A stretch of 53,157 nt of DNA from an uncultured Bacilli bacterium (GCA_934097105.1 CAKONI010000004.1:1-53157); one strand, 5' to 3'; shown: positions 1,640-40,693, numbered from the stretch's first letter. The notes: generated by a model from the letters alone, not told the origin. Translations and numbers: made by a program.

Positions 1640-4600
1640 TTATGAAAGAGTGAAACTCTTACCTGAACATGGTTCTGCATAGACACTACTAGAGGAACCA
1701 TACCATTTACTGGTTGTGTTAGTTAGATTTCCTGTTGTACTTGGTATTTTTACAGTCCAGGTTGTGGCAGATAAGCCTGCAGAAGAAAACATTTCTTTCA
1801 TATTAGTAACCTTTGATGTATTCCAATTTGATAAATTTAAATTAAAATTCGTAGCATTTTGGCCTGCTCCCAAAAACATTCCTCTCATACCTGTTACCTT
1901 TGAGGTATTCCAGTTTGAAAGATCTCCTATGCTCCATGTTGTGGCTTTTTCGCCTGCGTGATTAAACATAAAACTCATATTGGTTACACTTGATGTATTC
2001 CAGTTTGATAAATCTCCTATATTCCATGTTGTGGCACTGCTACCTGCATAATAAAACATAGAACTCATACTTGTTACATTTGAGGTATCCCAGTTTGATA
2101 TATTTCCTATACTCCATGTTGTAGCAGAAGAGCCTGCATTTGAAAACATAGTATTCATATATTTCACTTTTGATGTGTCCCAATTCGATAAATCTAAGTT
2201 AAAAGTTGTAGCATTTCGGCCTGCAACTTCAAACATATACCTCATATCAGTTACATTTGATGTATTCCATTTTTCTAAACCTACTAAGTTAAAAGTTGTG
2301 GCAGAAGAGCCTGCATTTGAAAACATACTGCTCATATCAGTTACTTTCGAGGTGTCCCAATTTGATAAATTCAAATTAAAAGTTGTAGCATTTTGGCCTG
2401 TTTGATAGAACATATAACTCATATTTGTTACACTTGAAGTATTCCAGTTTGACAAATCTCCTATACTCCATGTCTTGGCATTTTTGCCTGCTCCATTAAA
2501 TATAGAGTTCATATTAGTTACTTTCGAGGTGTCCCAATTTGATAAATTCAAATTAAAAGTTGTAGCATTTTGGCCTGCAGAATCAAACATAGATTCCATA
2601 CCTGTTACATTTGATGTATTCCAGTTTGATAAATCCAAATTAAAAGTTGTAGCATTTTGGCCTGCAGAAGAAAACATTCGCTTCGTATTTATTACATTTG
2701 AGGTGTCCCAGTTTGAAATATCTCCTATACTCCATGTTGTAGCAGAAGAGCCTGCATTTGAAAACATACTGCTCATATCAGTTACATTTGAAGTGTCCCA
2801 GTTTGACAAATCTCCTATACTCCAGGTTGTAGCTTTTTCACCGGTTCCAAAAAACATAGACCTCATATTTGTTACACTTGAAGTATTCCAGTTTGACAAA
2901 TCTCCTATACTCCAAGTCTTAGTATCAGAGAATTCACCAGCATCCTCTGCAAACATATAACTCATATCTGTTACCTTTGCTGTATTCCAACTATCCAAAC
3001 CAACCAAATTAAGAGTTTCAGCGTGATAACCTGCTCTAAAAAACATATAACTCATATCTGTTACTTTTGCTGTATTCCAATTTGACAAATCTAGATTGAT
3101 AGTTTTGCCATCATAGCCTATACCCCAAAACATATAATTCATATTTGTTACATTTGACGTATCCCATGAGGATAAATCTAAATTAACAGTTGCGACGGTG
3201 TTACTTTCACCTAATCCCACAAACATATACCTCATATCTGTCACTCTAGAAGTATCTAAATTAGAAAAATATCCCTTTTCCACATTATCAAATTGATAGA
3301 ACCAATATGCAGTAGAAGTGGGTTGTATTGTTTTTCCTATTTCTACACCTTTTACATTTCTACGTTCACTATACCATAATGAACTGTTATAGGAACTAAA
3401 TGCATACGAATTATCACTATCCATAGCATTATATTCATTAGCAACCTTTCCATGTTTTTCTATATTAGAATTTCTATTAGTATTTTGTTCATTTATTATA
3501 AATGTTCCATCTTCATATAATGATGTTACTTCACTTGTTACTTTTACTGTACATGTTGTATTATTTGTTATATTTTTTATTGTTACTTGATTATCTTTAA
3601 ATGTTCCTTTTTGATTATTTGTACAGGTTACTACTCCAAGTGCATTTTCTATATCTGAGATTATATTGAATATTCCATCTTCATTATATTTTACTCTCTT
3701 TGTAGAATCTCCATTTATTACTCCATTTTGTACTACTACATTTACTTCATACTCTTCTTTTTCCCATACTGCATATAAATCCACTATAGTATTATTATCT
3801 TCTGTTAAATCTATTACTTCTTCTTCATCATTATATTTTACATTTCCATTTAATTTAGTACTCCATCCTTTAAATATATTACCTGTTTTTGTAAATACAT
3901 TTTTAGTTAATTTGCTTTTAACTCCAGTTGTAAAACTAGAATTAGTCATTGTTCCAGTACCACCATTTGGATTGTATTTTACTTGATAAGTAACTCCCTC
4001 TTTAACCCAAACTGCATATAAATTAACTACTCCATTATATACATTTGTTAAATTACTTACTTGTTCTTCATCTGTATAAACTACATCTTTACTATTATTA
4101 ATACTCCATCCTTTAAATGTATAACCATTTTTTGTAAATGTATTTTTTGATAGTTTTTTTGTTTCTCCTTGTTTAAACGTAGTACTATTCATTGTTCCAG
4201 TACCACCATTACTATTATAATTTACTACATAAGTCTCTTCTGTATCTGTTTCATTTACATTAGTTTTTACTCCTAATTTAAATGCATAAGTAATATCATT
4301 TTCTTTATTAAAATCTATATTAGTATTTTTTTCATCTATCCATACTCTAAGTTTATATTTATCTTTTGTTTCGATGTTAGTACTATTATGATTATTAGTT
4401 TTAGTATATAAAACATAATCTTTACTTATATCACTTACGTTTTTTAATAATAACTCATTACCATCAAAATCTGTTAAATATACTTTTATTTCATCATCAC
4501 TTAACTGTTGTACATTTCCATCTTCTGTTTGTAATTTTTCTAAAACTATACTATAACTAATATTTTGATTTTTACTAGTTTTTGAAGTTACAACAAAATC

Positions 4601-4825
4601 AAATGCATCACTTTGAGTTTTACCTTCTTCATCACTCATAGGTATTGCATTAGGTATATTTATTACATTTGTATTACTTTCTAAAAATTCTAAGGATGTA
4701 CTATCTGTAATAATTTTATTTTCATTTTTTCCGGTATAAGTGCTTTTATAAATTGCATATGATCCTAAGATTAATCCTAATATAAATACTATTATTAGTA
4801 CAATAGTAAGTTTTTTATTTTTCAT
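1640..4825 (-). CDS. Large surface protein: signal/TM anchor, two Listeria-Bacteroides (Flg_new) repeats, then about 20 BspA/DUF285-type leucine-rich repeats
   Basis: The start was moved to ATG 4825 (MKNKKLTIVLIIVFILGLILG), which has a GAGGTG RBS upstream. Motifs YNSNGGTGTM...FTKNGYTFKGWS and YNPNGGTGTM...FTKTGNIFKGWS match Flg_new. The reiterated LSNWDTSNVTDMSSMF...AGxxATTF/W units are the DUF285/BspA signature. Confidence 0.8.
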   Translation of the reverse strand: MKNKKLTIVLIIVFILGLILGSYAIYKSTYTGKNENKIITDSTSLEFLESNTNVINIPNAIPMSDEEGKTQSDAFDFVVTSKTSKNQNISYSIVLEKLQTEDGNVQQLSDDEIKVYLTDFDGNELLLKNVSDISKDYVLYTKTNNHNSTNIETKDKYKLRVWIDEKNTNIDFNKENDITYAFKLGVKTNVNETDTEETYVVNYNSNGGTGTMNSTTFKQGETKKLSKNTFTKNGYTFKGWSINNSKDVVYTDEEQVSNLTNVYNGVVNLYAVWVKEGVTYQVKYNPNGGTGTMTNSSFTTGVKSKLTKNVFTKTGNIFKGWSTKLNGNVKYNDEEEVIDLTEDNNTIVDLYAVWEKEEYEVNVVVQNGVINGDSTKRVKYNEDGIFNIISDIENALGVVTCTNNQKGTFKDNQVTIKNITNNTTCTVKVTSEVTSLYEDGTFIINEQNTNRNSNIEKHGKVANEYNAMDSDNSYAFSSYNSSLWYSERRNVKGVEIGKTIQPTSTAYWFYQFDNVEKGYFSNLDTSRVTDMRYMFVGLGESNTVATVNLDLSSWDTSNVTNMNYMFWGIGYDGKTINLDLSNWNTAKVTDMSYMFFRAGYHAETLNLVGLDSWNTAKVTDMSYMFAEDAGEFSDTKTWSIGDLSNWNTSSVTNMRSMFFGTGEKATTWSIGDLSNWDTSNVTDMSSMFSNAGSSATTWSIGDISNWDTSNVINTKRMFSSAGQNATTFNLDLSNWNTSNVTGMESMFDSAGQNATTFNLNLSNWDTSKVTNMNSIFNGAGKNAKTWSIGDLSNWNTSSVTNMSYMFYQTGQNATTFNLNLSNWDTSKVTDMSSMFSNAGSSATTFNLVGLEKWNTSNVTDMRYMFEVAGRNATTFNLDLSNWDTSKVKYMNTMFSNAGSSATTWSIGNISNWDTSNVTSMSSMFYYAGSSATTWNIGDLSNWNTSSVTNMSFMFNHAGEKATTWSIGDLSNWNTSKVTGMRGMFLGAGQNATNFNLNLSNWNTSKVTNMKEMFSSAGLSATTWTVKIPSTTGNLTNTTSKWYGSSSSVYAEPCSGKSFTLS
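1738..3253 (-). repeat. Coding tandem repeat array (about 75-78 bp period) for the DUF285/BspA LRR units
   Basis: Near-identical DNA units recur, e.g. gtcccaatttgataaattcaaattaaaagttgtagcattttggcctg at about 2354 and about 2531. The plus-strand ORFs 1716-2960 are mirror-frame shadows of these repeats. Confidence 0.8.
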
Positions 4826-4892
4826 AATAAGTAACACCTCTATTTTCTTATAGTTTAATAATATCAAAAAAACATCTTTTAACAAGATGTTT

Positions 4893-8806: not shown

Positions 8807-11800
8807 TTATCTAGTTACTTTTTTTATTATTACGTATGTTGAAAATAAGGTTATTAATGATAGTAATGTTAGTGAAATTATATTCATTTTTGTATCTTTA
8901 TTTTCTATTTTTATACCTGTTTTTGGTGGGGTTATTTCTAATATATTGTTTGTATTTATTGTTATATTTTTTTCAATTAATTTGTTTATTATGGTGTATC
9001 CATCGTAGATGGTATTGTATCCTTTTATTTTATGTTCTTTTATTTTGTAAATTATTTCTTTGCCGTTTTCGTATTTATCTAGATCTTTTAGCACGTAAAT
9101 CCAGTTATTTTTTTTGGTTATTTTTATTTGTTTTATTAAGGTGCTTCCTTTATAGATGTCTACTAGTATTTCGCTTGGTCTTAGGCCTTTTTCGTTATTG
9201 TTGTCTTTCCATATTTTTGTTATTTTAATATTTATTTTCTTTGTGTTATGGGTATTGGTGATGGTTGTTTGAACTTCATTTTTTACTTTTGTTACTGAAT
9301 TTTTTATACTTGTTTTGTATCCTTTTACTTCGCTTTCTATTATTTCATATTTTATTTCTTGGCCATTTTTGTATTTATCTAGATTTTTAAAGATATAGGT
9401 CCAGTTATTTTCTTTTGTTATTTTTTCTGTTTTATATAAAATGCCGTCTTTATATAGTTTTACAGTTATGCTTTTTGGTCTTATTCCGTCTTGGTTATTG
9501 TTATCGTTCCAGGATTTTTTTACCTTTATATTTATTTTTTCTGGAGCGTGTTTATTTGTTATGTCGAAGTTATTTATTGTTGTTTCGTAGCCGTTTACAT
9601 CTATTTCTTTTACTTTGTAATTTATTTCTTTGTTGTTTGCATATCTTATGATGTTTTCAAAGGAATAGGTCCAGTTTGTGCTTTCGCTTGCTTTAGTTCT
9701 TGCTATTTCATTATCTAGGTGATCGTATAAAATAATTGTTATTTCATTTGGTCTTATTCCGTCTTGGTTATTGTTATCATCCCATGATTTGGATCCTGTT
9801 ATAGTTATTGTTTCGGGATTATAAGTATTTATTATGTCGTATCCATCATAGGTTGTGTCGTAGTCTTTTACTGCTTCTTCACTTACTGTGTAGTTTATGA
9901 ATTTTCCTTTGCTATATTCTGGAAGATCAGTAAATTCATAGGTCCAGTTTTCTTCTTTTGTTATCTTTTTTTGTTTTTTTATTATGGAGGTTTCTCCGAC
10001 TTTTCCCTCAAGGGTTATGGTTATGCTGTTTGGTCTTTCATATTTGTTATTTTCATCTTTCCAAATTTTTTTGCCACTTATCGTAACATCTTTAGGATTA
10101 TGAGTATTTATAATTATAAATGGGTTGTCTTCGTCGTATGAAGTTTGATAGTATTTTTCAGTTTCTTTATCCATTTTTTCATTTACTAAGTATTCTATTT
10201 TCTTTCCGTTTTCATATTTTGGCAGGTTTTCGAATTTATAAATCCAGTTTTCTTCTTTTGTTATTTTTGTTGTTTTTATTATGTTATTGCAAGTGTTTTT
10301 GCAGAGATTAATTGTAATTTCATTTGGTCTTAAACCATCTTTATCGTTTTGATCAACCCATCTTTTTTCTCCGATTATATTTATTTTTTCTGGAATATGG
10401 GTGTTTGTTATTGTGAAGTTATTTATTGATGTTTCGTAACCATTTATTTTTTCTTCTTTTATGGTGTAGTTTATTTCATTTCCGTTTTCGTTTTTAGGAA
10501 GATTTGCAAATTCATAAGTCCAGTTTTCGTCTTTTGTTAGTTTTTTCATTTTTATTACTTTGTTATTTGCGAATAATTTTACTGTTATTTCGTTTGGTCT
10601 TATTCCGTCTTGGTTATTGTTATCATTCCATATTTTTTCTATCTTTATATTTTTTACTTCTGGGGTATAACTGTTTGTAATATTGTAGCCGTTTATAGAA
10701 GTTTCGTAATCCTTTACTTTTTCTTCTTTTATAGTGTAATTTATTTTATGGTTTTCGTCGTTTTCATAACCTGTTTCATATTTATAAAGATTAGTAAATG
10801 CATGAGTCCAGTTTTTATCTTTTGTTAATTTTTCTGTTTTTATTAGTTTGTTGTTTGCGAATAATTTTACTGTTATTTCATTTGGCCTTTTTTGATCGCG
10901 ATTGTTATCATCGTTCCATGTTTTTACAACTGGTATGTTTATTTTTTGGCGATTTAGTATATTTAAAGTTACTGTAGAGGTATTACTTGTAACTTTATCT
11001 GTTTCATTTTTTTGATTTATTTTTGTTGTTATTTTATAATCGAAGGTTACTTCTCCGGTTGTGTTTTCTAATGGCAAAAATGTAAATGTCCCATCTTGTT
11101 TTATATTAAGGGTTCCTTGTAATAGACCATTTTTATAAATATTGTAAGTACCATTTTCATTTTTTATAGTACTTTTATTTGTAATTATTTCTATTTCATC
11201 AGTAACTCTTACTTTATCATTTCCGGTTTTTATGTCTTCTTTTTTGTTATTTATTAGATCGTTTTTTAAAATTGAACTTCCGTTTATTGTGCTTTCTTGG
11301 TATCCTATATAAGTTGAATTATTTTCATAGTGATCATCTTTTGTTATTGCGGGAATATCTACGGCTGGTTTATCAAACTTAAGATTTAAATTTGTTTTGT
11401 CGTAGTATGGATTATTTTCTGAGACTGTTGTTTTAAGGGTGGCATTTTCGTTGGTGTAAATACTTCCATGATAGGTGTCTTTTGCTTTTACTGTGTAGGA
11501 TAAGTTATAATTTTTGTTTGATTCAAGATTTCCAATTTTCCATTTTAAAATGGTGCCGTTTTCGGTTTCTATTACTTCGACTTTCTTGTCTATTAAGTTC
11601 TTTTTAGAGTCACTAGTTAGGGTAAATTCTTTTGGAATTATATCTGTTAGGACACTATCTTTTCCAATTTTATTTATACTTTCTTCGATTACTTTTTCGA
11701 ATTTTTCTTTTAATTCTTTGCCTGATAGGGCTTTATAGTTTTTGTAAAGTGGACTTTCTGAGGTGTTTTTTGGATTTATGGCCTCTAATTTTTTTAGAAT

Positions 11801-12583
11801 TTCTTCGACTTCATTTTCATTATCTGTACTACCGAACGCTATTGTGTAGATGTCTGCGGTTTTGTTTTCTTGTTTTAATGAATCAAGTGAGTCTTTGGCT
11901 GCTTCGGATGGTCTTTTTGTTTTAGTGCAATCATAGTAGGTGTATTCTATACATACGGGATCGTCACTGCTACCTGTTCCAAGTCTTTGTCCATTATAAT
12001 TAAAGTATGTTGGAAGGCCATCGGTTAGAATTATTACTATTTGTTTAGCGTCTTTTCTTTTGCCTTTGTTTAGGAATTCTTTGGCTCTTACAATTCCTTG
12101 TTCTAGATTGGTGCCTCCACTTGCTTTTATGTTATCTATAAAGTTTATTACATCTTTTTTGTTTGTTGTCATTTCAAGTTTATTTTTATTTGCAGTTGTT
12201 GCAAATTCTACGACTCCGATTTTTACACTTTCTTTATCATCCATAAGGGTGTTTACTAGATCTTTTGCGGCTTCTTTGGCATTTTCTAACTTTTTAGAAT
12301 TTTTCATGCTTTTTGATTTATCGAGTACTAATACTATATCAAGTTTGTTGCTTTTTCTTGTTTCTTCATTATATGGATTTGCTTTTATATTTAGATTTAC
12401 TTTTGCAAGGCGTCCATATTCTAGATTGTCGCTTGTGAATTCTTGGGATATTTTGCTTGCCTCTTTTGTAATTTCTATTTTTCCGGCATTATTTTGAGCA
12501 GATATTGTGAAAATTGTAATTAGTGATAAGAAAAGTGTACTTAAAATTAGTTTTATTTTGTGTTTTTTTAGTTTATTTATCAT
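8807..12583 (-). CDS. Sortase-anchored adhesin: signal peptide, vWFA domain, 7 CnaB-type repeats, PPKTG sorting signal
   Basis: MIDAS motif DIVLVLDKSKSM, plus GGTNLEQG and LTDGLPT. Seven repeats of W(N/K)DxNNxDGxRPxEITVxL...NWTYxFxNLPKYxNGxEIxYxxxE. The C-terminus is PPKTG, a hydrophobic stretch, then KKVTR. Confidence 0.85.
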   Translation of the reverse strand: MINKLKKHKIKLILSTLFLSLITIFTISAQNNAGKIEITKEASKISQEFTSDNLEYGRLAKVNLNIKANPYNEETRKSNKLDIVLVLDKSKSMKNSKKLENAKEAAKDLVNTLMDDKESVKIGVVEFATTANKNKLEMTTNKKDVINFIDNIKASGGTNLEQGIVRAKEFLNKGKRKDAKQIVIILTDGLPTYFNYNGQRLGTGSSDDPVCIEYTYYDCTKTKRPSEAAKDSLDSLKQENKTADIYTIAFGSTDNENEVEEILKKLEAINPKNTSESPLYKNYKALSGKELKEKFEKVIEESINKIGKDSVLTDIIPKEFTLTSDSKKNLIDKKVEVIETENGTILKWKIGNLESNKNYNLSYTVKAKDTYHGSIYTNENATLKTTVSENNPYYDKTNLNLKFDKPAVDIPAITKDDHYENNSTYIGYQESTINGSSILKNDLINNKKEDIKTGNDKVRVTDEIEIITNKSTIKNENGTYNIYKNGLLQGTLNIKQDGTFTFLPLENTTGEVTFDYKITTKINQKNETDKVTSNTSTVTLNILNRQKINIPVVKTWNDDNNRDQKRPNEITVKLFANNKLIKTEKLTKDKNWTHAFTNLYKYETGYENDENHKINYTIKEEKVKDYETSINGYNITNSYTPEVKNIKIEKIWNDNNNQDGIRPNEITVKLFANNKVIKMKKLTKDENWTYEFANLPKNENGNEINYTIKEEKINGYETSINNFTITNTHIPEKINIIGEKRWVDQNDKDGLRPNEITINLCKNTCNNIIKTTKITKEENWIYKFENLPKYENGKKIEYLVNEKMDKETEKYYQTSYDEDNPFIIINTHNPKDVTISGKKIWKDENNKYERPNSITITLEGKVGETSIIKKQKKITKEENWTYEFTDLPEYSKGKFINYTVSEEAVKDYDTTYDGYDIINTYNPETITITGSKSWDDNNNQDGIRPNEITIILYDHLDNEIARTKASESTNWTYSFENIIRYANNKEINYKVKEIDVNGYETTINNFDITNKHAPEKINIKVKKSWNDNNNQDGIRPKSITVKLYKDGILYKTEKITKENNWTYIFKNLDKYKNGQEIKYEIIESEVKGYKTSIKNSVTKVKNEVQTTITNTHNTKKINIKITKIWKDNNNEKGLRPSEILVDIYKGSTLIKQIKITKKNNWIYVLKDLDKYENGKEIIYKIKEHKIKGYNTIYDGYTIINKLIEKNITINTNNILEITPPKTGIKIENKDTKMNIISLTLLSLITLFSTYVIIKKVTR
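9001..10927 (-). repeat. Coding tandem repeats (about 270-290 bp) for the 7 CnaB domains
   Basis: A recurrent DNA block ggtcttattccgtcttggttattgttatc occurs at about 9478, 9750 and 10596. Plus-strand ORFs across this region are shadows. Confidence 0.75.
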
Positions 12584-12725: not shown

Positions 12726-13594
12726 TTATTTTTTACCCATTAAAAGTTTTATGGTGCCTGTTTCATAGTATCTTACTCCGGCTTTTGGGGTTTGATCTAC
12801 TACTATGTCTCCGTCGCCGACATATGTTATTTCAAAGTTTGATAAATATTTCTTTGCTTCGTTTTTTGTCATTCCTATAACATTTGGTACATCGTAATAT
12901 TTTTTGTCCATCCATTCGTAATCTTTTTCTTTTTGGTTTGGTTGTTTTTCTATGTCCATTATGTTTATCATATCTAGGAGAATTTTTCTTACGAAAGGTG
13001 TTGTTGTGTAACTTGATAAAAGGGCTGTTTTTTTAGGATTGTCTATGGCTAAGTAGAGTACTACTTTAGGGTCATTACTTGGAAGTACTGCCATGAAACT
13101 CATTATGTAGTTGTTTTCTAGATATCTTCCGTTTTCTACCTTTTGGGCTGTTCCGGTTTTGCCTCCTATTCTATATCCATCTATGTAAGTTACTTTACCT
13201 CCGCCTTTAGCGACGACGCTTTCAAGGGCCATTCTTAATATATTTGAGGTGTTTTTACTTATTGTTTTTCTCACGAGTTGTTTATTTTTTTCTTTATAAA
13301 TATTTCCAGTTTTACTGTCTAAAAGACTTTTCATTATGTAAGGTTTGTACAAATTACCACCATTTACTATCGAAGAGACTGCTGTTATTTGTTGAATTGG
13401 TGTTACACTTACTCCTTGACCGAATGCTGTTGTTGCAAGTTCTAGATCTTTTACATCTTTTAGGTTAAATAAGATTCCTTTTCCCTCACCATTTAAATCT
13501 ATTCCTGTTTTTTCGCCGAAGCCGAATAAGTTTATGTATTTAAAGAGTTTATCTTTTCCTAGTGAGAATCCCATTTTCACAAATCCTGGGTTGC
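12726..13594 (-). CDS. spoVD: Class B PBP (SpoVD-like), C-terminal segment of a split gene: second half of the transpeptidase domain plus one PASTA domain
   Basis: PGFVKMGFSLGKDKL follows directly on from the NSCN that ends the upstream segment. Has the KTG motif (GGKTGTAQ) and a single PASTA domain (YDVPNVIGMTKNEAKKYL...). There is no native start; the track's 'M' is a TTG inside the junction. Confidence 0.85.
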
Positions 13595-15285
13595 TTTGTG
13601 TCAATACACGAACACTTTAAAACAGGAGTTTGTCTTCTACAAGCAGGGGTTTGCAACGACTTAGACTTAAGTTCGTTTTTTGTGTTCATATCCAAATCTA
13701 TATCAATATCTGGTGTATTAAAATCAAAATAAATAGATAATTTTATATACTTTCTATCACCATTAACTTTTTCAACTATAACCTTATCAACTAATAAATT
13801 TACCAAATAAGGTAAGTTTTCTTTAATATCCAATTTTACACTTAAGCAAGATTCAATATCACTAAATTTTTTACGCATTTTTTCTTCTTCTAAGTTCTCT
13901 CTTTTCGAACTGTCTATTTGCTTTTGTAAATTAAATAATTCAGTATTAAATTTATCATTTCTTTTTTTAAATTCAAAGTCATCAATCATACCTTTTAAAC
14001 TTAAATCTAACAATTTATCTTTTTGTTTATCAATTTGTTCTATCTTTCTTTTTATTTCTTCTGTATCTAATTCATCAGTAAAATTCTTAACAATATTTTT
14101 ATATTCTGATAAAACTTGTCCCAAATAGTCTTTTTTATGTTTAATGAAATCACTAAATAGATTAACAAATATTTTATCAAGATAACTTTCTTTTATAATT
14201 GGAGATTCACATTTTGACACTCCATCAGTTTTATAAGTTTTACAAGCCCATGTTGGATTTAAAGAACGATTCGATCCACCATTACGAATAAATATACTAT
14301 TACAATCTTTACAATATAATTTAGCCGAATACTTATATTTTTTTATGTGTTCTTCAGAATTGAGTACATGCCTAGATGGTAATTTTTTTCTTCTTTCATG
14401 CAAAGCATTTGCTTTGTCCCAAAGTTCTTCTGATACAATGGCAGGAATTCTATCATCTTTTTCTATAATTTGTTCTTCTTTAGGTATTTTTTTCTTTTTA
14501 TGAGTTTTATAATCTTCCACCTCAGTAAGTTTAGCAGTATAAAATCCCTTATATCTAGGGTTGGAAAGCATTTTTGCAAGAGCTGTCCCTGAATATGGTT
14601 TTCCTTTGGAATTTAAATATCCCATTTGTGCTAGTTCTTCGCCAATTTTTTTTAAGCCAAGACTACCACTTGCATAAGTAGTAAATAAATACTTTATGAT
14701 TGGTGCTTCATTTGGGTTAATTTCATATATTCCATTTTTCTTATAATATCCAGTTAAATTACCACCGATTAATTTTCTATCTTTAATCATTCTATTAATA
14801 CCAAATTTAACTCTTTCTGATAATTTACGAACTTCATCTTGTGCCATACTAGACATGATAGTAAGTCTAAACTCAGAATCTTCTTGAATTGTATTTAGAT
14901 TATCAGATAAAAAATATACTATAACACCTTGTTTCAATAAATATTCTGTATATTTGATACTATCAACCGTATTTCTGGAAAATCTAGAAATTTCTTTTGT
15001 TAAGATTAAATCAATTTTTCCTAAAGTTGCATCTTCAATCATTTTTAAGAAAGAATCACGATTTTTAACAGCTGTTCCACTGATTCCCTCATCAATATAT
15101 CCACGAGTAAAAATCCAATTAGAATTTTCTTTTATCATATCTTCAAAATAATTTTGTTGATTTTCTAACGAATTTAACTGATCATCTTTATCTGTTGAAA
15201 CACGACCATAATATGCAACTTTTAAATTCATATCATAAATTGTTTTACCTTTCCTTAATTCTTCTCTTGCTTTTTTTATTTCCAT
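13549..15285 (-). CDS. Large serine recombinase (resolvase domain, recombinase domain, zinc ribbon, coiled coil)
   Basis: Catalytic region YYGRVSTDKDDQLNSLENQ and KEISRFSRN. Recombinase-domain motif AKMLSNPRYKGF. Zn-ribbon cysteines CKDC...WACKTY...KCE, followed by a coiled-coil stretch. The last 13 codons (PRICENGILTRKR) lie beyond the TTGC junction in host PBP DNA. Confidence 0.9.
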   Translation of the reverse strand: MEIKKAREELRKGKTIYDMNLKVAYYGRVSTDKDDQLNSLENQQNYFEDMIKENSNWIFTRGYIDEGISGTAVKNRDSFLKMIEDATLGKIDLILTKEISRFSRNTVDSIKYTEYLLKQGVIVYFLSDNLNTIQEDSEFRLTIMSSMAQDEVRKLSERVKFGINRMIKDRKLIGGNLTGYYKKNGIYEINPNEAPIIKYLFTTYASGSLGLKKIGEELAQMGYLNSKGKPYSGTALAKMLSNPRYKGFYTAKLTEVEDYKTHKKKKIPKEEQIIEKDDRIPAIVSEELWDKANALHERRKKLPSRHVLNSEEHIKKYKYSAKLYCKDCNSIFIRNGGSNRSLNPTWACKTYKTDGVSKCESPIIKESYLDKIFVNLFSDFIKHKKDYLGQVLSEYKNIVKNFTDELDTEEIKRKIEQIDKQKDKLLDLSLKGMIDDFEFKKRNDKFNTELFNLQKQIDSSKRENLEEEKMRKKFSDIESCLSVKLDIKENLPYLVNLLVDKVIVEKVNGDRKYIKLSIYFDFNTPDIDIDLDMNTKNELKSKSLQTPACRRQTPVLKCSCIDTKQPRICENGILTRKR

Positions 15286-15326
15286 AAATAGTACTTCCTT
15301 TCATGTGTTCCTAAAATTCAAGATAA

Positions 15327-15572
15327 CTAGGATGCTTGCATGGTAGCTCCATAATCAGCATTTGTCAAATCATTTTTTTCGTTCAATAAATATTCTTTTC
15401 TTACCTTTTTAAGTCTTCCCATAATAGAATTTTCCATTTCATTATATGTTCTTAAATCAATAACTTTTTCATCGTATAATTCTTTATTAACAATTAGCCT
15501 ATATTCCAATAACTTATATTCAAAAGGTAATTGTTTGGTACTAAACCTAACTTCTATATCATTTTCTAGCAT
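15327..15572 (-). CDS. Small hypothetical protein (81 aa) 41 nt upstream of the recombinase; candidate directionality/accessory factor
   Basis: Intact ORF with a GGAGGT RBS, co-oriented and adjacent to the recombinase. I recognise no motif. Confidence 0.45.
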   Translation of the reverse strand: MLENDIEVRFSTKQLPFEYKLLEYRLIVNKELYDEKVIDLRTYNEMENSIMGRLKKVRKEYLLNEKNDLTNADYGATMQAS

Positions 15573-15747
15573 TTAGATTTACCTCCAATAAAACCTATGT
15601 CAAAGTTTTTGGACTTATTCATTAGCATCACCTGTTTTAATTATCCCTTTTTGTAGAGAATTATCTTTTTCTAACGGATCTTTCAAATGAATTTCAATAG
15701 TATATTTAGTATTGTTACCATTATCAATTTCTAGATGATATGCTTCT

Positions 15748-15957
15748 TTATTTTTTTGTTATTCCTATTTCTGTATAATCTATCATATTTAGTTTGTATA
15801 TTTTTAAGCTTATTGCAATTATTATTTTCTTATACTCATTATCAGTATAAATATGATAAATTTCATGCTTTTCAGTTTCTAATTCTTTAATACTTAACCT
15901 GTAATCAATTAAATTTTCAATTCTTTCAACTTCACTATTTGTCTTTTTTATTTCCAT
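15748..15957 (-). CDS. Hypothetical small protein, possibly frameshifted at its 3' end
   Basis: Start MEIKKTNSEV sits behind an AAGGAGG RBS. The ORF stops just after an A7 run (15751-15757), and the +1 frame continues for about 45 more codons (KEAYHLEIDNGNNTKYTIEIHLKD...). Confidence 0.4.
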   Translation of the reverse strand: MEIKKTNSEVERIENLIDYRLSIKELETEKHEIYHIYTDNEYKKIIIAISLKIYKLNMIDYTEIGITKK

Positions 15958-16076
15958 ACTATAACCTCCTTGTAAGAAAAAAGAGCAATGCAATAATACA
16001 CATCGCTCTTTAGAATTTTTTCTTACAATACCATATTATCATAAAAGAGTGATTATGAATGTCCATCTTATATTTT

Positions 16077-16499
16077 TTAAATATTTCTTTTTTGCTTATA
16101 AACCCTATAAATAAGTCTACATTGCGATACAGATAAATTAACCTTATTTGATATCTCAGTCCATTTCAATTTTTGTGTTAAATCTTCTTTATAATAAATA
16201 ATTCATTTTTCCTTTTCTTTATATTTATTTAATCTTTTTAATTCCATGCTAACATATTTTAAAAGTATTTCTTTTTCTTTATAAAGCATTGATAATTTTT
16301 CATCATATTTTTGATTGTTAAAAATATAATATAAAAACTTATTTTTTTCTACTCTACTTGTAAAAACAACATCTTTTTTATATACAGTAGCTTGTGGTAA
16401 AACTTTTGATTTTTCACATTCTTTTTTATTCAATATATTATTTATTTGACTCTCTAATACAATAATCCTATCATTGGCCACTTTCAAGTTCATTTTCAT
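16077..16499 (-). pseudogene. Phage/ICE-type regulator (coiled coil plus sigma-70 region-4-like HTH, DUF1492-like) with an in-frame TGA
   Basis: The ORF ends at TGA 16203-16205. The same frame then continues IIYYKEDLTQKLKWTEISNKVNLSVSQCRLIYRVYKQKRNI to TAA 16077-16079, which looks like a region-4-type HTH. Confidence 0.45.
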
Positions 16500-16951
16500 T
16501 TCCCCCAATCTATTTTAATACTATAATTACTTATAAGATTTTTCTTGAGGAGGAAATGAATCTTATAATTTCTATAAAGCAAAAAAAGAGTGAGAAACAG
16601 CCTATTTTCTAAACTATTTTTCACTCTTTTAATTATTTCAACTTTTTGAGGACAAAATTCCCCATTCGATTTGTAAATTAACGATATAAAACGATCAAAT
16701 TCATAAAACAATAGAAAAATACGTAGCGCTATACCATACCCCTAAAATATAAATCTGAAACCTATAGTAATGTTGATATTATTATTTATCAAGATTTTTT
16801 TCACTAAACTTAGTAATAAAATAGGACAGAATTTTTTCATGTAGATTTTTTTCAATCAAATGTATTATCCATACTGAAATATGCTTTTTTTTACAAGTTT
16901 CTTTGTGCTGTCAGAAGTATTATAACAATTTTTTTTTAGCAATTTCTCTAT

Positions 16952-17179
16952 TTAACTTGAAATTTTTGGAAAATAACATAATAAATGAAATGAATAATTA
17001 AGCTTTACATCAAATTCAATTCCATTTATAACTTTTATATCAGTATCTAATGTTTCTATATAATTATGCTCTGTAAATGAAATGTACTTTAAATTTTGCT
17101 GTTTTGCCATTGTTAATATTTCTACTCTAAAACGCTTTTCACCAGTAACCAAAGAATGTACATGCAAATCATACTTCAT
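16952..17179 (-). pseudogene. PHP-domain phosphoesterase, N-terminal fragment
   Basis: MKYDLHVHSLVTGE...FTEHNY...NGIEFD matches the PHP N-terminal His motifs. It is only 75 aa, against a usual length of more than 200 aa. An in-frame TAA is followed by another 28 open codons. Confidence 0.55.
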
Positions 17180-17181
17180 AG

Positions 17182-17637
17182 TTATATCCTCTTTGAATTA
17201 TTTAATCGATAATTCAACTCCCAAAGAGCATTTTTATTGCTATCCCATCTTAATTTTTTTATAGCATCTTCATAATAAAGCCATTCCATTTTAGAATGTT
17301 CATGGGAAAGTTTTATGTTTTTACTTTTGCAACCAATTCCAAAACAGTGTTCATATATTAATATCACATCTTCTCCCCAAATGAAGTCCTTTGTCACATT
17401 GGGAACTGGCATTGTACAAACAGATTCTAGTTCAATTAAATCAGTAAAGTCAGTAATGCCTGCTTCTTCATTAGCCTCTCTAATACATGCATCTTTATAA
17501 GACTCATCTTCATCTTCTACTCCGCCAGCAATGCCTTGCCATATTTCTTTTGAACCATTTCTACAAAAAATCCCATATAAGTATTTGTCATTTTCTTTAA
17601 TGAATGGAAACGCCAATATCTGATGTGGTTTTCTCAT
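17182..17637 (-). CDS. NUDIX hydrolase (NudB-like)
   Basis: Nudix box GGVEDEDESYKDACIREANEEAGI (GX5EX7REUXEEXGU). 151 aa and intact. Confidence 0.8.
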   Translation of the reverse strand: MRKPHQILAFPFIKENDKYLYGIFCRNGSKEIWQGIAGGVEDEDESYKDACIREANEEAGITDFTDLIELESVCTMPVPNVTKDFIWGEDVILIYEHCFGIGCKSKNIKLSHEHSKMEWLYYEDAIKKLRWDSNKNALWELNYRLNNSKRI

Positions 17638-17977
17638 AATATCTCCTCACTTCTTTAACTAACATTATATAATTCTTAAATAAAATATGCAATATTAAAA
17701 AAACCATTTTTATAGAAATAGTTTTATGTGTAATTATATCTTCTGACAATGTTTTTATTTTAAAACTTAATATATCTAATAGTTTTGCTCCAATATCTTC
17801 TTTTAGAGAGTTTATATAGTTATATAATTTTTTTACCAATCTTTTCACATATAATATATCTTCATTATTTTCAACTATCATACAATAACAAAGACTGGTA
17901 TTTTCATATCCTTTCTTTATTTCTAATTTATTAAAATTATCAAATTGTTTAGACTCTTTATGAAATGTAACTAACAA
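17597..17977 (-). CDS. Hypothetical protein; the frame is open upstream without a start, so it may be the 3' part of a frameshifted gene
   Basis: The same frame stays open upstream to about 18112 (EKIAISLFDKLDKEILSINNGIKRNYLIKNVAYRF...). It meets ORF 18088-18369 at an A6 run (18115-18120). Confidence 0.35.
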   Translation of the reverse strand: MLVTFHKESKQFDNFNKLEIKKGYENTSLCYCMIVENNEDILYVKRLVKKLYNYINSLKEDIGAKLLDILSFKIKTLSEDIITHKTISIKMVFLILHILFKNYIMLVKEVRRYYEKTTSDIGVSIH

Positions 17978-18087
17978 ATTATTTTGATTTATCTGAATTT
18001 CTAAAATTTTATTTATAAATCTATATGCTACATTTTTAATTAAGTAATTTCTTTTTATCCCATTATTAATACTTAATATTTCCTTAT

Positions 18088-18369
18088 CTAATTTATCAAA
18101 TAATGATATAGCAATTTTTTCTTATTAAATATAAGATTTTCATAAGTATTAGTATCAATATTATTTTTAGAATCTTCTTTTATTTTAATTACATTAAATG
18201 ATTGTTTCATATTATTATCAAATTCAATCCTTTCATTACTAGAGTATTCAACACCATCATAAATCAAATTATATGTAGAACAAACATCAATTTTGGCACT
18301 ATATTTTATACTATTTGCAAGGGTTTCTTCAAATTCAAAAGTGTTCCTGTATTTACTCCAAGATTGCAT
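18088..18369 (-). CDS. Junction ORF (93 aa) at the right end of the element, hypothetical
   Basis: The A and T of its ATG (18369-18368) are host PBP bases and the G (18367) is the junction core base. Codon 2 (CAA, 18366-18364) lies in the TTGC core. There is no RBS upstream. Confidence 0.3.
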   Translation of the reverse strand: MQSWSKYRNTFEFEETLANSIKYSAKIDVCSTYNLIYDGVEYSSNERIEFDNNMKQSFNVIKIKEDSKNNIDTNTYENLIFNKKKLLYHYLIN

Positions 18370-19409
18370 GAGTTTTCAAATACTTGAAGAAATGTTTGAG
18401 CACCATGGCCACCGGGTTTCCAGCATTTAATTTTTGCACCGGATACTTTTACGGATCCACTGTCATAGAATGTATCTTTTTCTAGGTTTACTGCGCCCTC
18501 TTCTACAGCAGCCGCGGTTGTTATTATTTTAAAGGTAGAGCCTGGTTCATATGTCATCCATATTGGAAGATTTCTATTTAATGTTTCTGTATCATATTTT
18601 TTATAATTGTTAGGATCAAAATTTGGTCTTGAACTCATTCCTAGAATTTCTCCAGTATTAGGGTCCATAGCGACCGCTAAAGCATGATCGGGAGTAAAGG
18701 CTTTTGCTATGTTATCTAGTTCTCTTTCAATTGATGTTTGAATATCAAAGTCTACTGTTAGCATTACATCAAGTCCAGATGATGGTTCAGTATATACTTC
18801 GGCCATATCTAGTTTATTTCCTTTAGCATCACTATAATATTTAATCGCGCCATCTTCTCCGGTTAAATACTCATCATATAAAAGTTCTATTCCCGAAAGT
18901 CCTTGGTTATCTATTCCTGTATAACCAAGTACATGAGAAAGCATTTTTCCATTTGGATAATTTCTTTTTGCTTCTTTTACTAAATAAACCCCATCAAAAT
19001 TATAACTATTTATTTTATCTGCTATTTCATATGATAAGTTTCTCCCCTCTGGATGAACCCTTTCTATCGATGCTTTTTTAGTTACATGTTTGTACATATC
19101 ATCATAAGGAGTATTTAAAATATCGCTTAGGGTTTTTGCAACTTCTTCCGGATTTTTTATTTGATTAGGAATTATTATAAGACTAGTTATTGTTATATTA
19201 TCCGCAAGAATCTTACCATTTCTATCTAGGATTTTTCCCCTAGAAGCACTTATTGGAAGTTCTCTACTCCATAAATCATCTGATAAAGTGCTTAATTTGT
19301 TATATGAAAATACTTGTACATATAAAATACGAATAAATATTATTATAAATAAAAGGACTGCTCCAAGAAATATAAATTTCATTCTTTCATTATATTTTTT
19401 AGTAAACAT
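18363..19409 (-). CDS. spoVD: Class B PBP (SpoVD-like), N-terminal segment of a split gene: TM anchor, dimerisation domain, first half of the transpeptidase domain
   Basis: Signal-anchor MKFIFLGAVLLFIIIFI. SxxK motif GSTFK. The segment KCWKPGGHGAQTFLQVFENSCN ends in the SxN motif. After N the frame runs 19 codons into the element and stops (track ORF 18306-19409). Confidence 0.85.
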
Positions 19410-19564
19410 GCTATCACCTAGTGAAATATATGCATAAAATAAATATTTATAAATTATTAATATAAAGAGTTTTGGTGAATTTTAAAGATAATAAAAAGCA
19501 TTAGAATAATATCTAACACTTTTCATCTTTAGTAAGTTTTAATTTTTCTTAGAATTTGTAATAT

Positions 19565-19763
19565 TTATTTAATAAGTTTATTAAAAACTTCTATGATACT
19601 TTCTTCCTTATCTAAATTAATATAAATATAATTATCAAAATTGTTTTTACAAAATTTTTCTAAAATATAGGTTTTTCCTGTTTGTTTTGCTCCGACTAGC
19701 ATAAGTGGCATTTTATAATTATCTATCCATTTTTTTAAGTTCCTCTTCTATTTTTCTATACAT
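19565..19763 (-). pseudogene. AAA+ ATPase (AAA_14/DUF4143 family), 5' fragment, frameshifted and truncated
   Basis: ATG 19763 sits behind a GAGGTG RBS: MYRKIEEELKK, then an A7 run (19730-19736) shifts the frame. With one A removed it reads ...LKKWIDNYKMPLMLVGAKQTGKTYILEKFCKNNFDNYIYINLD (Walker A). It stops after about 65 aa, whereas the family is about 400 aa. Confidence 0.6.
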
Positions 19764-25248: not shown

Positions 25249-25416
25249 ATGAAAGTTAAATTATTTGATGAAAGTCATGAAAAGGATTTGGAAGATGCGA
25301 TTAATGGTTTTTTGAGTGAGGATATTGATGTTATTGATATTAAATATGAGGTGGCGATTGAAACATTTGGTGAAGAGCAAATATATTGTTTTTCTGCGAT
25401 GATCATTTATAATTAA
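25249..25416 (+). CDS. cse60: Cse60-family small sporulation protein homologue
   Basis: MKVKLFDESHEKDLEDAINGFLSEDIDVIDIKYEVAIETFGEEQIYCFSAMIIYN matches my recollection of the Cse60/YteV pattern (KxFD..HEKDLE..IN.FL...IKY.V...EQxYCFSAxIxY). Start moved to ATG 25249. Confidence 0.55.
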   Translation: MKVKLFDESHEKDLEDAINGFLSEDIDVIDIKYEVAIETFGEEQIYCFSAMIIYN

Positions 25417-38464: not shown

Positions 38465-40693
38465 TTATTCGTCTTCTAATTTTACTAGGACTTCACGTGG
38501 TTTTGAGCCATTTTGGGGTCCGATTATTCCGCGTTCTTCTAATAGGTCTATGATGCGGGCTGCTCTATTGTATCCTAGTTTGAATCTTCTTTGTAATAGT
38601 GATGCACTTGCTTTTTGTTGAGTGATGACGAATTCTACTATTTCGTTGTATAGAGGGTCGTCATATTCTTCTTTTTCATTTGATATAGTGTTTTCTTTTA
38701 TTTCTGAGTCTACATTTTCAAGGTTCATGAAGTTTTGATCGAATGATGCTTTTTGCTGAGAAATGCAGTAGTCTACAACTTTTTTTATTTGTTCTTCATC
38801 TATGAAGGCTCCTTGAATTCTTTCTGGAACGTTTTCACCCATTGGTAAGAATAGCATATCTCCTTTTCCTAGAAGTTTTTCTGCTCCGACCATGTCTAGG
38901 ATGGTTCTTGAGTCTATACTTGATGATACGGCGAATGATATCCTAGATGGGATGTTTGATTTTATAAGTCCCGTGATTACATCTGTTGATGGTCTTTGGG
39001 TCGCTATTACTAAGTGGATTCCGGCGGCACGGGCCATTTGGGTAATTCTCATGATTGAGTCTTCTACTTCTTTGCCTGCTACTAACATAAGGTCTGCTAA
39101 TTCATCTACGATTACGACTATATATGGCATTTTTGTTAGTTGTTCATCTTCTGGTAATTTTTTATTTTTTTCTTCAATTATTTTATTGTATCCGGTTATA
39201 TTTTTGGTTCCTAGTTCTTCGAACAGGTCATAACGTCTTTCCATTTCACTTACTGCTCTTTTTAAGGCTACTGAGGCTTTTCTTGGATCGGTTACGACTG
39301 GTGTTAAAAGATGAGGAATTCCATTGTAGATGGAAAGTTCTACCTTTTTGGGATCGACCATTACTAGTTTTACTTCATCAGGTTTGGCTTTCATAAGGAT
39401 GGATACTAGCATTGTATTTATACAAACAGATTTTCCTGATCCTGTGGCGCCCGCTACTAAAAGGTGTGGTGTTTTGTCTATGTCGCACCATTTTACTTTT
39501 CCCATGATGTCTTTTCCGAGCGCTACGGAAAGTGGATGATTTTTAGTTTGTTTGGGCATAAGTTCTAGGGTTTCTCTTAAGGTTACTGGTTGGGCTTGTT
39601 CGTTTGGCATTTCTATACCTACGGTGCTTTTTCCTGGAATTGGTGCTTGTATTCTGATATCTTTTTTAGCGAGTGCAAGTGATATTTCTTTGTTGATTGT
39701 AAGTATTTTTGATACTCTTGTTCCTGATGATAGTGAAAGTTCATATTGGGTTACAGTTGGTCCGATATTTACTTCGACAACTTTTGCACTTATTCCAAAA
39801 TCACGAAGTACTTGTTCTAGGGATTCGATATTTTTTTCTATTTGGGTATGATCTGTAACTTTTTTCTTGTTTTTGGCTTCGGGTAATATATCTATTGGTG
39901 GAAGTGTGTAACTTCTATTAACTGGAGATGATTCTTCTTGGGCTGGTTTTTCTTTTTTATCATCTTTTATTTTTGTTAGTTCTTTTATGTCGTGTACTAC
40001 TATTTTTTCGTCATTGTGATCTACAATTTTTGGTTCTTCTTTTGATAAGGAAGCGCTTTCTTTTATTTTTTCCTCTTTTTCTTTTGGCGTACGTTTTAGG
40101 CTTTTGGCTTTTTCTTTTCCTTTATCTAGAATGTCTTTGATGCTTAGGCCTGTGAAAATCATAAAGCCTGAGACAAGCAGAATTGGTACGACTACTTTTG
40201 TTCCTTGAGCATCGAATAAGGCATAGAAAAGTGATGAGAAAATGGCTCCGAATATTCCTCCGCCTGTATTTGATAGGGCTGCGTTAAATACTCCAGTTTG
40301 AACACTTTTGTTCATAATTTTTTCTATTCCTAGCATTAAGTAATCTATGGTTTCTGTAAAAATTTTGCTTGGATTTATGTTGTCTAGGACATAGTTTTGA
40401 TGCATTAGAACTGTAAGGCCAATTACAAAAAGATAAACTCCGATCATTTTTGAGGATAGAAAGTTTATACTTTTTCTATTTACAATTATAAAGATTCCTG
40501 ATATAAGGAGTACTATTAGTAAGAAAAAATATAGGTTTCCAACTAAAAATAGAGAAAATGATGCGACTACTCTACCAGCAAATCCATATTTTCCTATTCC
40601 TAGTATTGCTAATAATATAAAAAGGATTCCATAAAGTTCTATTAAATAAGATGGTTTTTTGTCTTTTGCTTTTCTTGATTTTTTTTTGGCCAT
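38465..40693 (-). CDS. ftsK: DNA translocase FtsK/SpoIIIE
   Basis: N-terminal TM helices and a linker. Motor domain with Walker A GATGSGKS and Walker B VVIVDELADL. Gamma domain winged helix SASLLQRRFKLGYNRAARIIDLLEERGIIGP. Confidence 0.95.
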   Translation of the reverse strand: MAKKKSRKAKDKKPSYLIELYGILFILLAILGIGKYGFAGRVVASFSLFLVGNLYFFLLIVLLISGIFIIVNRKSINFLSSKMIGVYLFVIGLTVLMHQNYVLDNINPSKIFTETIDYLMLGIEKIMNKSVQTGVFNAALSNTGGGIFGAIFSSLFYALFDAQGTKVVVPILLVSGFMIFTGLSIKDILDKGKEKAKSLKRTPKEKEEKIKESASLSKEEPKIVDHNDEKIVVHDIKELTKIKDDKKEKPAQEESSPVNRSYTLPPIDILPEAKNKKKVTDHTQIEKNIESLEQVLRDFGISAKVVEVNIGPTVTQYELSLSSGTRVSKILTINKEISLALAKKDIRIQAPIPGKSTVGIEMPNEQAQPVTLRETLELMPKQTKNHPLSVALGKDIMGKVKWCDIDKTPHLLVAGATGSGKSVCINTMLVSILMKAKPDEVKLVMVDPKKVELSIYNGIPHLLTPVVTDPRKASVALKRAVSEMERRYDLFEELGTKNITGYNKIIEEKNKKLPEDEQLTKMPYIVVIVDELADLMLVAGKEVEDSIMRITQMARAAGIHLVIATQRPSTDVITGLIKSNIPSRISFAVSSSIDSRTILDMVGAEKLLGKGDMLFLPMGENVPERIQGAFIDEEQIKKVVDYCISQQKASFDQNFMNLENVDSEIKENTISNEKEEYDDPLYNEIVEFVITQQKASASLLQRRFKLGYNRAARIIDLLEERGIIGPQNGSKPREVLVKLEDE

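Follow-up and report, generated by a model that had tools for sequence, protein, structure and literature searches.

What does it mean for a bacterium when a sporulation gene is cut, inside a codon of its active site, by a mobile element? This question is raised by a stretch of 53,157 nucleotides (nt) from an uncultured Bacilli bacterium (GCA_934097105.1 CAKONI010000004.1:1-53157), referred to below as the window. On its minus strand, from 19409 to 12726, lies spoVD, a gene for a penicillin-binding protein (PBP), which is cut in the Asn codon of the SxN motif by an element carrying the gene for a large serine recombinase (LSR). The sequences show a real and precisely inserted LSR element that descends from an integrative and conjugative element (ICE) and looks competent for excision. 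By analogy with skin, SPbeta, vfbin and gin it is proposed, with a probability of roughly 60 %, that this element is excised by programme in the mother cell, where spoVD would be rejoined.

Insertion in the SxN codon of spoVD

The interrupted gene and the borders of the element are arranged as follows:

18364-19409, minus strand: spoVD 5' fragment, codons 1-349, with SxxK (S291), stopping at the AA of Asn349 in SxN
13595-18363, minus strand: intervening element of 4,769 bp (4,773 bp with one core copy), a decayed ICE derivative
12726-13594, minus strand: spoVD 3' fragment, from the C of codon 349 to codon 636, with the TPIQ motif, KTG (493) and one PASTA domain
18340-18391, minus strand: attL, core GCAA at 18364-18367, element-side arm TCTTGGAGTAAATACAGGAACACTTT below 18364
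13567-13618, minus strand: attR, core GCAA at 13591-13594, element-side arm AAAGTGTTCGTGTATTGACACAAAGC above the core

The N-terminal PBP open reading frame (ORF; 19409 to 18306) contains GSTFK (S291) and KCWKPGGHG and reaches ...FENSCN at 18366, after which 18 unrelated element-encoded codons follow up to a stop at 18306. The C-terminal ORF (13604 to 12726) begins with (M)TQSNPGFVKMG... and continues through KTGT (493) into one PASTA domain. Each junction has a copy of a 4-bp repeat (13591-13594 and 18364-18367), which reads TTGC on the plus and GCAA on the minus strand; this 4-bp identity is common to attL, attR and attB. In-silico joining in any register inside the repeat results in an open frame of 636 amino acids (aa) reading ...ENSCNPGF.... 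The attB joint contains GAAAACTCATGCAACCCAGGATTTGTG and the attP joint contains GTATTGACACAAAGCAATCTTGGAGTAAATAC. Recomputation returned every figure that the initial annotation had given for this joint, namely TTGC at both junctions, a distance of 4773 bp, ENSCNPGF in frame and a product of 636 aa; its view that a serine-recombinase element splits the gene at the SxN codon is borne out by the ORFs, the junctions and the empty-site alignment alike.

The gene had also been taken for spoVD, partly on the basis of its single PASTA domain, and this identity holds. The joined protein scores 716.9 bits with the NCBIfam equivalog TIGR02214 (spoVD_pbp; curated cutoff 688 bits), aligned 10-634 to 2-635 of 636. 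Pfam domains PBP_dimer, Transpeptidase and a single PASTA domain were recognized, and its top PDB match is SpoVD of C. difficile (7RCZ, 1.4e-118), the next PBP following at 9.5e-76. The motifs lie at STFK 291, SCN 347 and KTGT 493, with PASTA at 582-635, and C329, a His and C348 are placed around SxN. In its intact state the gene is a SpoVD equivalog with all catalytic motifs. The two Cys residues indeed lie 38 and 57 residues after the catalytic Ser (S291, C329, C348), the spacing that the initial annotation gave for SpoVD of B. subtilis, of which the domain plan and the catalytic Ser294 have been described (PMC3906833). The accompanying reading of the Cys pair as a StoA-reduced disulfide, which earlier work had put forward, needs qualification: Sacco et al. 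showed that SpoVD proteins have a Zn2+ site here, made up of the Cys pair, a His and, as fourth ligand, residue X of SxN (PMC9334274). By analogy this site would be D-C329-H-C348 in the joined protein.

Uninterrupted relatives, to be expected if the joint is correct, were recovered by a database search with the joined protein, which returned intact 636-aa orthologues of 98-99 % identity (P0001-P0004). One intact allele comes from L001, a contig of 100 kb in synteny with the window; both have the gene order Lon, short-chain dehydrogenase, NUDIX, spoVD, VWA/Cna_B protein (1,258 aa), MraY-like and Mur-ligase. The two sequences align in two blocks of ~96.5 % nucleotide identity ending at 18364 and 13594, which overlap by exactly the 4-bp core. 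The attB of L001 equals the left side of the window's attL plus the right side of its attR, identical across the 84 bp compared. This is a base-exact insertion into a gene that is left intact in close relatives, and excision of the element would, judging from these sequences, restore spoVD exactly.

The window DNA is metagenome-derived, and a contig of a mobile element could have been joined chimerically into spoVD during assembly. This explanation is effectively refuted already and retains next to no probability: an independent assembly (L004) shows the same interrupted structure with identical junctions, the diagnostic 367-aa product of the N-terminal fragment is present on ~15 contigs from several sources (NCBI, ENA, Logan), the breakpoints are base-exact against the empty site and the same architecture occurs in 74 related loci (see below). 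Both alleles circulate in the species cluster of the window, the interrupted one on ~15 contigs and the intact one on ~9. The window branch of spoVD shows 23 synonymous versus 4 conservative nonsynonymous codon changes, the intact-allele branch 22 versus 1. No active enzyme is predicted from the interrupted gene as long as the element is integrated, because SxxK and KTG are located on separate fragments. From B. subtilis and C. difficile it would follow by analogy that spoVD is made in the mother cell and needed for the cortex only; it cannot be essential for growth, because it is interrupted in many genomes.

Recombinase and conjugative ancestry of the element

The element contains the following genes and remnants:

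13549-15285, minus strand: LSR of 578 aa with Resolvase, Recombinase and Zn_ribbon_recom domains
15327-15572, minus strand: 81-aa ORF (orf81), candidate recombination directionality factor, directly upstream of the LSR in 67 loci
15615-15807, minus strand: remnant, 3' end of a type IV coupling protein (TraG/VirD4-like) gene
16952-17179, minus strand: 75-aa fragment with weak PHP-domain similarity (under the Pfam cutoff), likely a gene remnant
17182-17637, minus strand: NUDIX hydrolase cargo gene, 151 aa, within the 1.96-kb middle segment
17719-18363, minus strand: left-end remnant with 94 % identity to the ICE directly beyond attP, the decayed C-terminal extension of the attP-spanning recombinase ORF
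18088-18369 and 17597-17977, minus strand: ORFs of the decayed recombinase extension

The first 565 codons of the LSR are encoded by the element, while its last 13 codons and stop lie inside the spoVD 3' fragment. All three Pfam domains (PF00239, PF07508, PF13408) were found over cutoff, and the motif YGRVSTDKDDQ around the catalytic Ser is invariant in the LSR alignment (A1). The protein matches the integrase family phrog_95 in PHROGs (2e-109) and, as its best PDB match, the N-domain of a C. difficile conjugative-transposon recombinase (3G13, 6e-41), followed by TnpX. It is less than 40 % identical to every entry of the annotated phage and plasmid collections; its NCBIfam matches to CcrC and CcrB are far under their cutoffs. 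An orthologue of XisF was considered and rejected (NCBIfam 80.5 bits, cutoff 375).

Joining the element ends in silico produces an attP that is an imperfect inverted repeat (19/24) with the AA of GCAA at its centre, as is usual for sites of LSRs. In L005 and L006, contigs that come from separate samples, a recombinase gene of 97 % identity is followed by this attP with 3 mismatches. An unintegrated attP form of the parent ICE thus exists on two independent contigs. Here the recombinase ORF encodes 871 aa and crosses attP (L005:10001-12616, L006:3882-6497); the extension past attP, of ~306 aa, has no Pfam match. On integration the ORF is cut at codon 565 and acquires a short tail from the host sequence, and in the window the extension has decayed to two short ORFs (17597-18369, minus strand). 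An in-silico circle of L023 likewise gives an 874-aa recombinase, and the extension is 42-53 % identical in L023, L071, L073 and L081. Because attP lies inside the recombinase ORF, the circle encodes the 871-aa form and the integrated copy the 578-aa form; these isoforms may contribute to the control of directionality.

The window element has kept 645 bp of the left and 2,163 bp of the right ICE end, each 94 % identical, the right end including ~190 bp of the coupling-protein gene. The 1.96 kb in between, with the NUDIX gene and the PHP-like fragment, is unrelated to the available ICE sequence. In L005 (33.8 kb) the genes flanking attP encode a coupling protein (T4SS-DNA_transf/TraG-D_C), a MobL relaxase, a VirB4-like ATPase and an M23 peptidase, and the contig further carries methylases and a type III restriction-modification system. 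A relaxase, a coupling protein and a VirB4-type ATPase, the set by which an ICE was recognized, occur together in L005, L057, L009, L027 and others, and in L057 the ICE is integrated in spoVD. The window element retains nothing of this set beyond the ~190 bp of coupling-protein gene. Because parent and relatives have transfer genes and only this piece is kept here, the window element is a non-conjugative derivative of an ICE and not an ICE. Searches of its cargo added little: in PHROGs the integrase and NUDIX were matched and no other phage family, PADLOC detected no defence system, and NCBIfam and Pfam gave only the sub-cutoff PHP match beyond the NUDIX and recombinase annotation. A prophage origin was ruled out, there being no phage structural, lysis or replication genes on the element and conjugation genes in its relatives. 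The element had been called skin-like; as regards origin this label had to be dropped, as a decayed ICE without phage genes is found.

The 81-aa ORF is located ~45 bp upstream of the LSR gene in the 67 loci mentioned (a distant copy is present in the site-A elements discussed below) and is the only cargo gene common across elements. Database searches returned 264 relatives of its product, all without a name; some are present on ~1,000 contigs, and the conserved core spans ~60 aa. Structure prediction from a shallow alignment (model m3b8a9e6e1d2d) gave an alpha-hairpin (H17-34, H40-77; pLDDT 75), for which Foldseek found no match below E = 1 in the PDB. Among the non-significant matches was a coiled-coil hairpin from the integrase of Listeria phage LI (5UAE, E = 2.4); this generic likeness, at most a hint of a cofactor that binds coiled coils, is given no weight. 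LSR directionality factors have been described as lacking a common fold (PMC11795197). The protein is proposed as a candidate directionality factor on the basis of position and conservation, because the layout of a small ORF before the LSR matches that of skr-spoIVCA in skin.

Distribution and further cut sites

A scan with one genome per species yielded more than 540 relatives of the LSR, the best 80 of which were examined. In 74 of these 80 loci the LSR (47-97 % identity) adjoins a spoVD fragment at the SxN position. Wherever the junctions at this site are readable, they fall on the AA of the SxN Asn codon, and the SxN site alone is used with at least three types of attP arm. The recombinase gene lies directly upstream of the spoVD 3' fragment in sense orientation in 71 loci. 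The opposite arrangement, with the recombinase next to the 5' fragment in antisense, was seen in L035, L042 and L061, which are also split at the SxN position, as placed by protein alignment alone. A full coupling-protein gene (ICE state) is present upstream in at least 21 loci. Where both junctions are within reach (19 loci), elements measure 2,480-10,548 bp, 18 of them being smaller than 6.4 kb; the smallest (L011, 2,480 bp) consists essentially of attL, the 81-aa ORF, the LSR and attR. The LSRs are full-length in nearly all loci, including all 19 mini-elements, and the mini-elements have no transfer genes. The spoVD pieces in ~75 loci contain no stops or frameshifts, and the regular stop codon terminates the 3' pieces. 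Nested or tandem elements seem to be present at L049:668-9553, where a 698-aa recombinase is followed by an unrecombined attP-like joint and where a second LSR, beside a spoVD piece, and a 92-aa fragment of a recombinase also occur.

Insertion is not restricted to the SxN codon (site B). Site A lies inside the F-K codons of S-T-F-K, where the two junctions have just one dinucleotide in common, the AA of the codon for the catalytic lysine, and site C in ACN-CCN-AT of the conserved T-P-I motif, at about residue 414 (L032 and 14 other loci). The SxxK and T-P-I sites are served by LSR families separate from that of the SxN site; the site-A and site-C LSRs are each ~41-42 % identical to the window LSR and have the same three Pfam domains. 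Site A is occupied in L007, L034, L055, L069, L083 and L041. The combinations found were:

sites A and B interrupted: 6 loci (L041 counted in)
sites B and C interrupted: 14 loci (L041 counted in)
sites A, B and C interrupted: 1 locus, L041, with four gene pieces

In the species cluster of the window itself, other strains are cut at site C and not at B (product P0362 of 419 aa, found on 6 contigs that share the flanking genes of the window). Strains cut at site C are represented by L087-L089, and the element of L088 encodes an AbiEii-family protein. Proteins of 43-56 aa in the P0001 cluster, considered as middle 'exons' of spoVD, turned out to be unrelated.

The metagenome-assembled genomes (MAGs) that carry these loci are labelled 'Bacilli bacterium', 'Tenericutes' or 'Mollicutes'; the genera named include Ca. 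Faecimonas, Coprovivens and Faecisoma, which GTDB places in the order RF39 (PMC8035907), and all three hosts whose GTDB placement is on record belong to this order. From these relatives, the host of the window probably belongs to RF39 as well. Element contigs L007, L024, L041, L043, L054, L055 and L079 were binned as Vescimonas, Phocaeicola, Oribacterium, Paludibacteraceae, Bacteroidaceae or Muribaculaceae, which probably reflects mis-binning of mobile-element contigs in MAGs.

Excision during sporulation: proposal, alternatives and parallels

ICEs of this family integrate by means of the LSR, and they do so at the AA of the Asn codon in SxN. According to the proposal, sporulating cells would co-transcribe the 81-aa ORF and the LSR from a 'CATA' -10 box of the sigma-E/sigma-K type, like the promoter of spoVD. 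With the 81-aa alpha-hairpin protein acting as recombination directionality factor, the LSR would recombine attL with attR to give a 4.77-kb circle and an exact 636-aa spoVD on the mother-cell chromosome, and the element would be retained in the forespore. Timing, cell specificity and the part played by the 81-aa protein are what we infer within this scheme.

The transcriptional step draws on motifs upstream of both genes. In B. subtilis, 'CATA' characterizes the -10 elements that sigma-E and sigma-K use. The boxes in the window are:

19425-19432, minus strand: -10-like box of spoVD, CATATATT, a 'CATA' motif 23 nt upstream of the start codon
15592-15599, minus strand: -10-like box of the 81-aa ORF, CATAGGTT, 27 nt upstream of the start, a weak match to the family CATAnnnT

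Across lineages the regions upstream of orf81 show a terminator hairpin and then CATAnnnT (CATACAAT, CATATAGT, CATAAAAT and others) ~25-35 nt before the start codon; boxes of the same kind precede spoVD (CATATAAT, CATATTAT). Between -50 and -12, CATAnnnT occurs in 32 of 48 orf81 and 12 of 22 spoVD upstream regions, versus 23 of 262 for other genes on the same contigs. A sigma-70 scan of the element was uninformative (55 sites vs 45.9 +/- 6.8 in shuffles).

Several observations weigh against a developmental role. The window's own orf81 box (CATAGGTT) fits the family poorly, CATAnnnT overlaps with sigma-A-like TAnnnT hexamers, and a sigma-70-like site (10/12) lies ~130 nt upstream of orf81. The 81-aa protein is a candidate for the directionality role by position and conservation. 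In JGI metagenome contigs (two scans) and in IMG/VR, neither exact nor degenerate patterns of attP gave a hit, and the excised mini-circle was not sighted independently. A second PBP/spoVD copy is absent from the 53-kb window, the rest of the host genome being unseen. Long vertical residence, expected to show as co-divergence of LSR and SpoVD, found no support: the two divergences are uncorrelated (Spearman -0.06), and LSRs of 97-100 % identity, those of mini-elements included, occur in hosts whose SpoVD C-fragments are only 50-67 % identical. This makes many of the insertions recent, and fragments may be intact for lack of time to decay, so that the argument that intact fragments prove selection was downgraded. 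The sequences indicate that the family moves horizontally very often.

Such rampant transfer would suit an ordinary mobile element without a developmental role, whose carriers would lack cortex or spores, which would excise only at the low rate, tied to transfer, that ICEs typically show and of which the mini-elements would be decaying leftovers. The target, a conserved motif of a gene dispensable for growth, is what such an element might choose, the three sites could simply be the most conserved codons of the transpeptidase domain, and the same site holds the ICE state in the loci with a full coupling-protein gene (at least 21). Furthermore, the allele is polymorphic within the species, and loss of sporulation is common in gut Firmicutes, RF39 including predicted non-sporulators (PMC10868615). 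Nevertheless, plain insertion, the main rival, is considered the less likely reading: the spoVD pieces of ~75 loci are free of stops and frameshifts even with two or three insertions, mini-elements reduced to as little as 2.5 kb have kept just the 81-aa ORF, the LSR and both att ends, a CATA box that is otherwise rare is common to the recombinase operon and spoVD, and in the species cluster of the window the intact allele is no commoner than the interrupted one. The CATA motif shared by operon and gene also speaks against a stochastic, reversible switch, in which excision and re-integration in growing cells would create spoVD-ON and spoVD-OFF subpopulations as bet-hedging on spore quality. The attP form assembled in two independent samples and the possible sigma-70-type promoter upstream of orf81 would be in line with such a switch, as would the finding that yin in yabG of C. 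botulinum is excised at all time points (PMC10747680), but the attP contigs are full ICEs and not the mini-element, and a non-replicating 4.8-kb circle must re-integrate before it is lost at division. A switch of this kind is accordingly given little credence. Programmed excision in the mother cell is the reading preferred here, on which spoVD would probably be a novel and widespread instance of gene rejoining in sporulating cells.

The class of elements as such has precedents. Published targets of intervening elements are sigK, spsM, spoVFB, spoVR, spoIVFB, gerE and yabG; in the literature searched, spoVD was not linked to an intervening element or a recombinase insertion in any paper, which agrees with the initial annotation that spoVD is outside the known targets. 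What is new here is the spoVD target and the conjugative origin, the class being known already from skin, SPbeta and gin. In skin of sigK (skr-spoIVCA in B. subtilis, CD1231/CD1234 in C. difficile) an LSR element likewise splits a mother-cell sporulation gene. The recombinase gene similarly lies at the element's border, directly upstream of the 3' gene fragment and preceded by a small gene (skr in B. subtilis), and this skr-spoIVCA layout beside the 3' fragment is under sigma-E control (PMC6957869; Galperin et al., bioRxiv 10.1101/2022.02.25.481979). Sigma-E control is also proposed here, and in both systems sizes and cargo vary by species, the recombinase alone being shared. In contrast, the target of skin is a sigma factor and not an enzyme cut at its catalytic SxN codon, its ancestry is prophage and not conjugative, and excision of the spoVD element is predicted from sequence. 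The gin element in gerE of B. cereus (GirC/GirX) is closer in being non-prophage, in combining an LSR with a ~6.5-kDa directionality factor, in having its crossover predicted at an AA midway through an att site with inverted repeats and in a suspected link to conjugative plasmids (PMC5595907). However, gin has three recombinase genes and no demonstrated conjugative parent, whereas the parent ICE of the spoVD element was seen both as attP form (L005, L006) and integrated (L057).

SPbeta in spsM (SprA/SprB) is likewise an active mobile element that may double as a developmental intervening element. Suzuki et al. found that ICEBs1 equipped with the LSR unit of SPbeta integrates at the spsM attB and is excised on induction (PMC6957869), and the spoVD ICE family may, by analogy, be the natural counterpart of this chimera. 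SPbeta itself is a phage, though, and the chimera is man-made and mitomycin C-induced, while the present ICE is natural and concerns another gene in another bacterial order. The nif/hup/fdx elements of heterocysts (XisA, XisC, XisF) are comparable as independent recombinase elements in genes of a terminally differentiated cell and, reportedly, in cutting one operon or gene into many pieces; they differ in phylum and developmental programme, and the window LSR stays under the XisF cutoff. TndX of Tn5397, TnpX of Tn4451 and CcrABC resemble the window LSR in domain architecture, 3G13 and TnpX being its best PDB matches, but none of them is known to target spoVD, and the window element lacks transfer genes.

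The multiple cut sites allow a bolder and more tentative reading, which we regard as possible although doubtful: spoVD of RF39 would be a mosaic gene with up to three cuts in catalytic motifs, made by ICE-descended LSR cassettes that are all removed in the mother cell under sigma-E-type promoters. If true, it would be the first sporulation gene to need several excisions, a Firmicute parallel to the nif genes of heterocysts, and the first natural conjugative 'intervening element'.

Little else in the window relates to sporulation. Apart from spoVD, only a Cse60-like gene and an FtsK/SpoIIIE-family translocase (38465-40693) were noted. Neighbouring features are:

25249-25413, plus strand: 55-aa gene, 98 % identical to an L001 gene that matches Pfam Spore_Cse60, a small sporulation-associated protein
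19565-19711, minus strand: 48-aa ORF with an AAA_14 match, just upstream of spoVD, which looks like a truncated ATPase gene
8807-12583, minus strand: 1,258-aa VWA/Cna_B surface protein, between spoVD and the MraY-like/Mur-ligase genes
1640-4885, minus strand: 1,081-aa protein with seven DUF285 ('Mycoplasma') repeats

The VWA/Cna_B and DUF285-repeat proteins fit a Mollicutes-related, host-associated Bacilli lineage.

For RF39, sporulation has been predicted while the presence of spoVD was reported to be reduced or absent (PMC10868615). Split genes may explain part of this call, because genes in two to four pieces escape orthologue calling, and predictions of sporulation from MAGs should join such spoVD fragments. 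With spoVD an enzyme that is cut at its catalytic motifs joins the short list of sporulation genes with LSR elements, and the origin of the element is conjugative and not phage. The phenomenon is extended to an uncultured, genome-reduced gut lineage, probably RF39, with at least 74 species-level genomes and with module proteins on up to ~1,000 contigs. These loci supply several sets of LSR and att sites, along with a candidate 81-aa cofactor, a useful resource for genome-engineering toolkits. If excision is developmental, transfer of ICEs among gut commensals would rewire an essential step in spore formation and hence host-to-host transmission.

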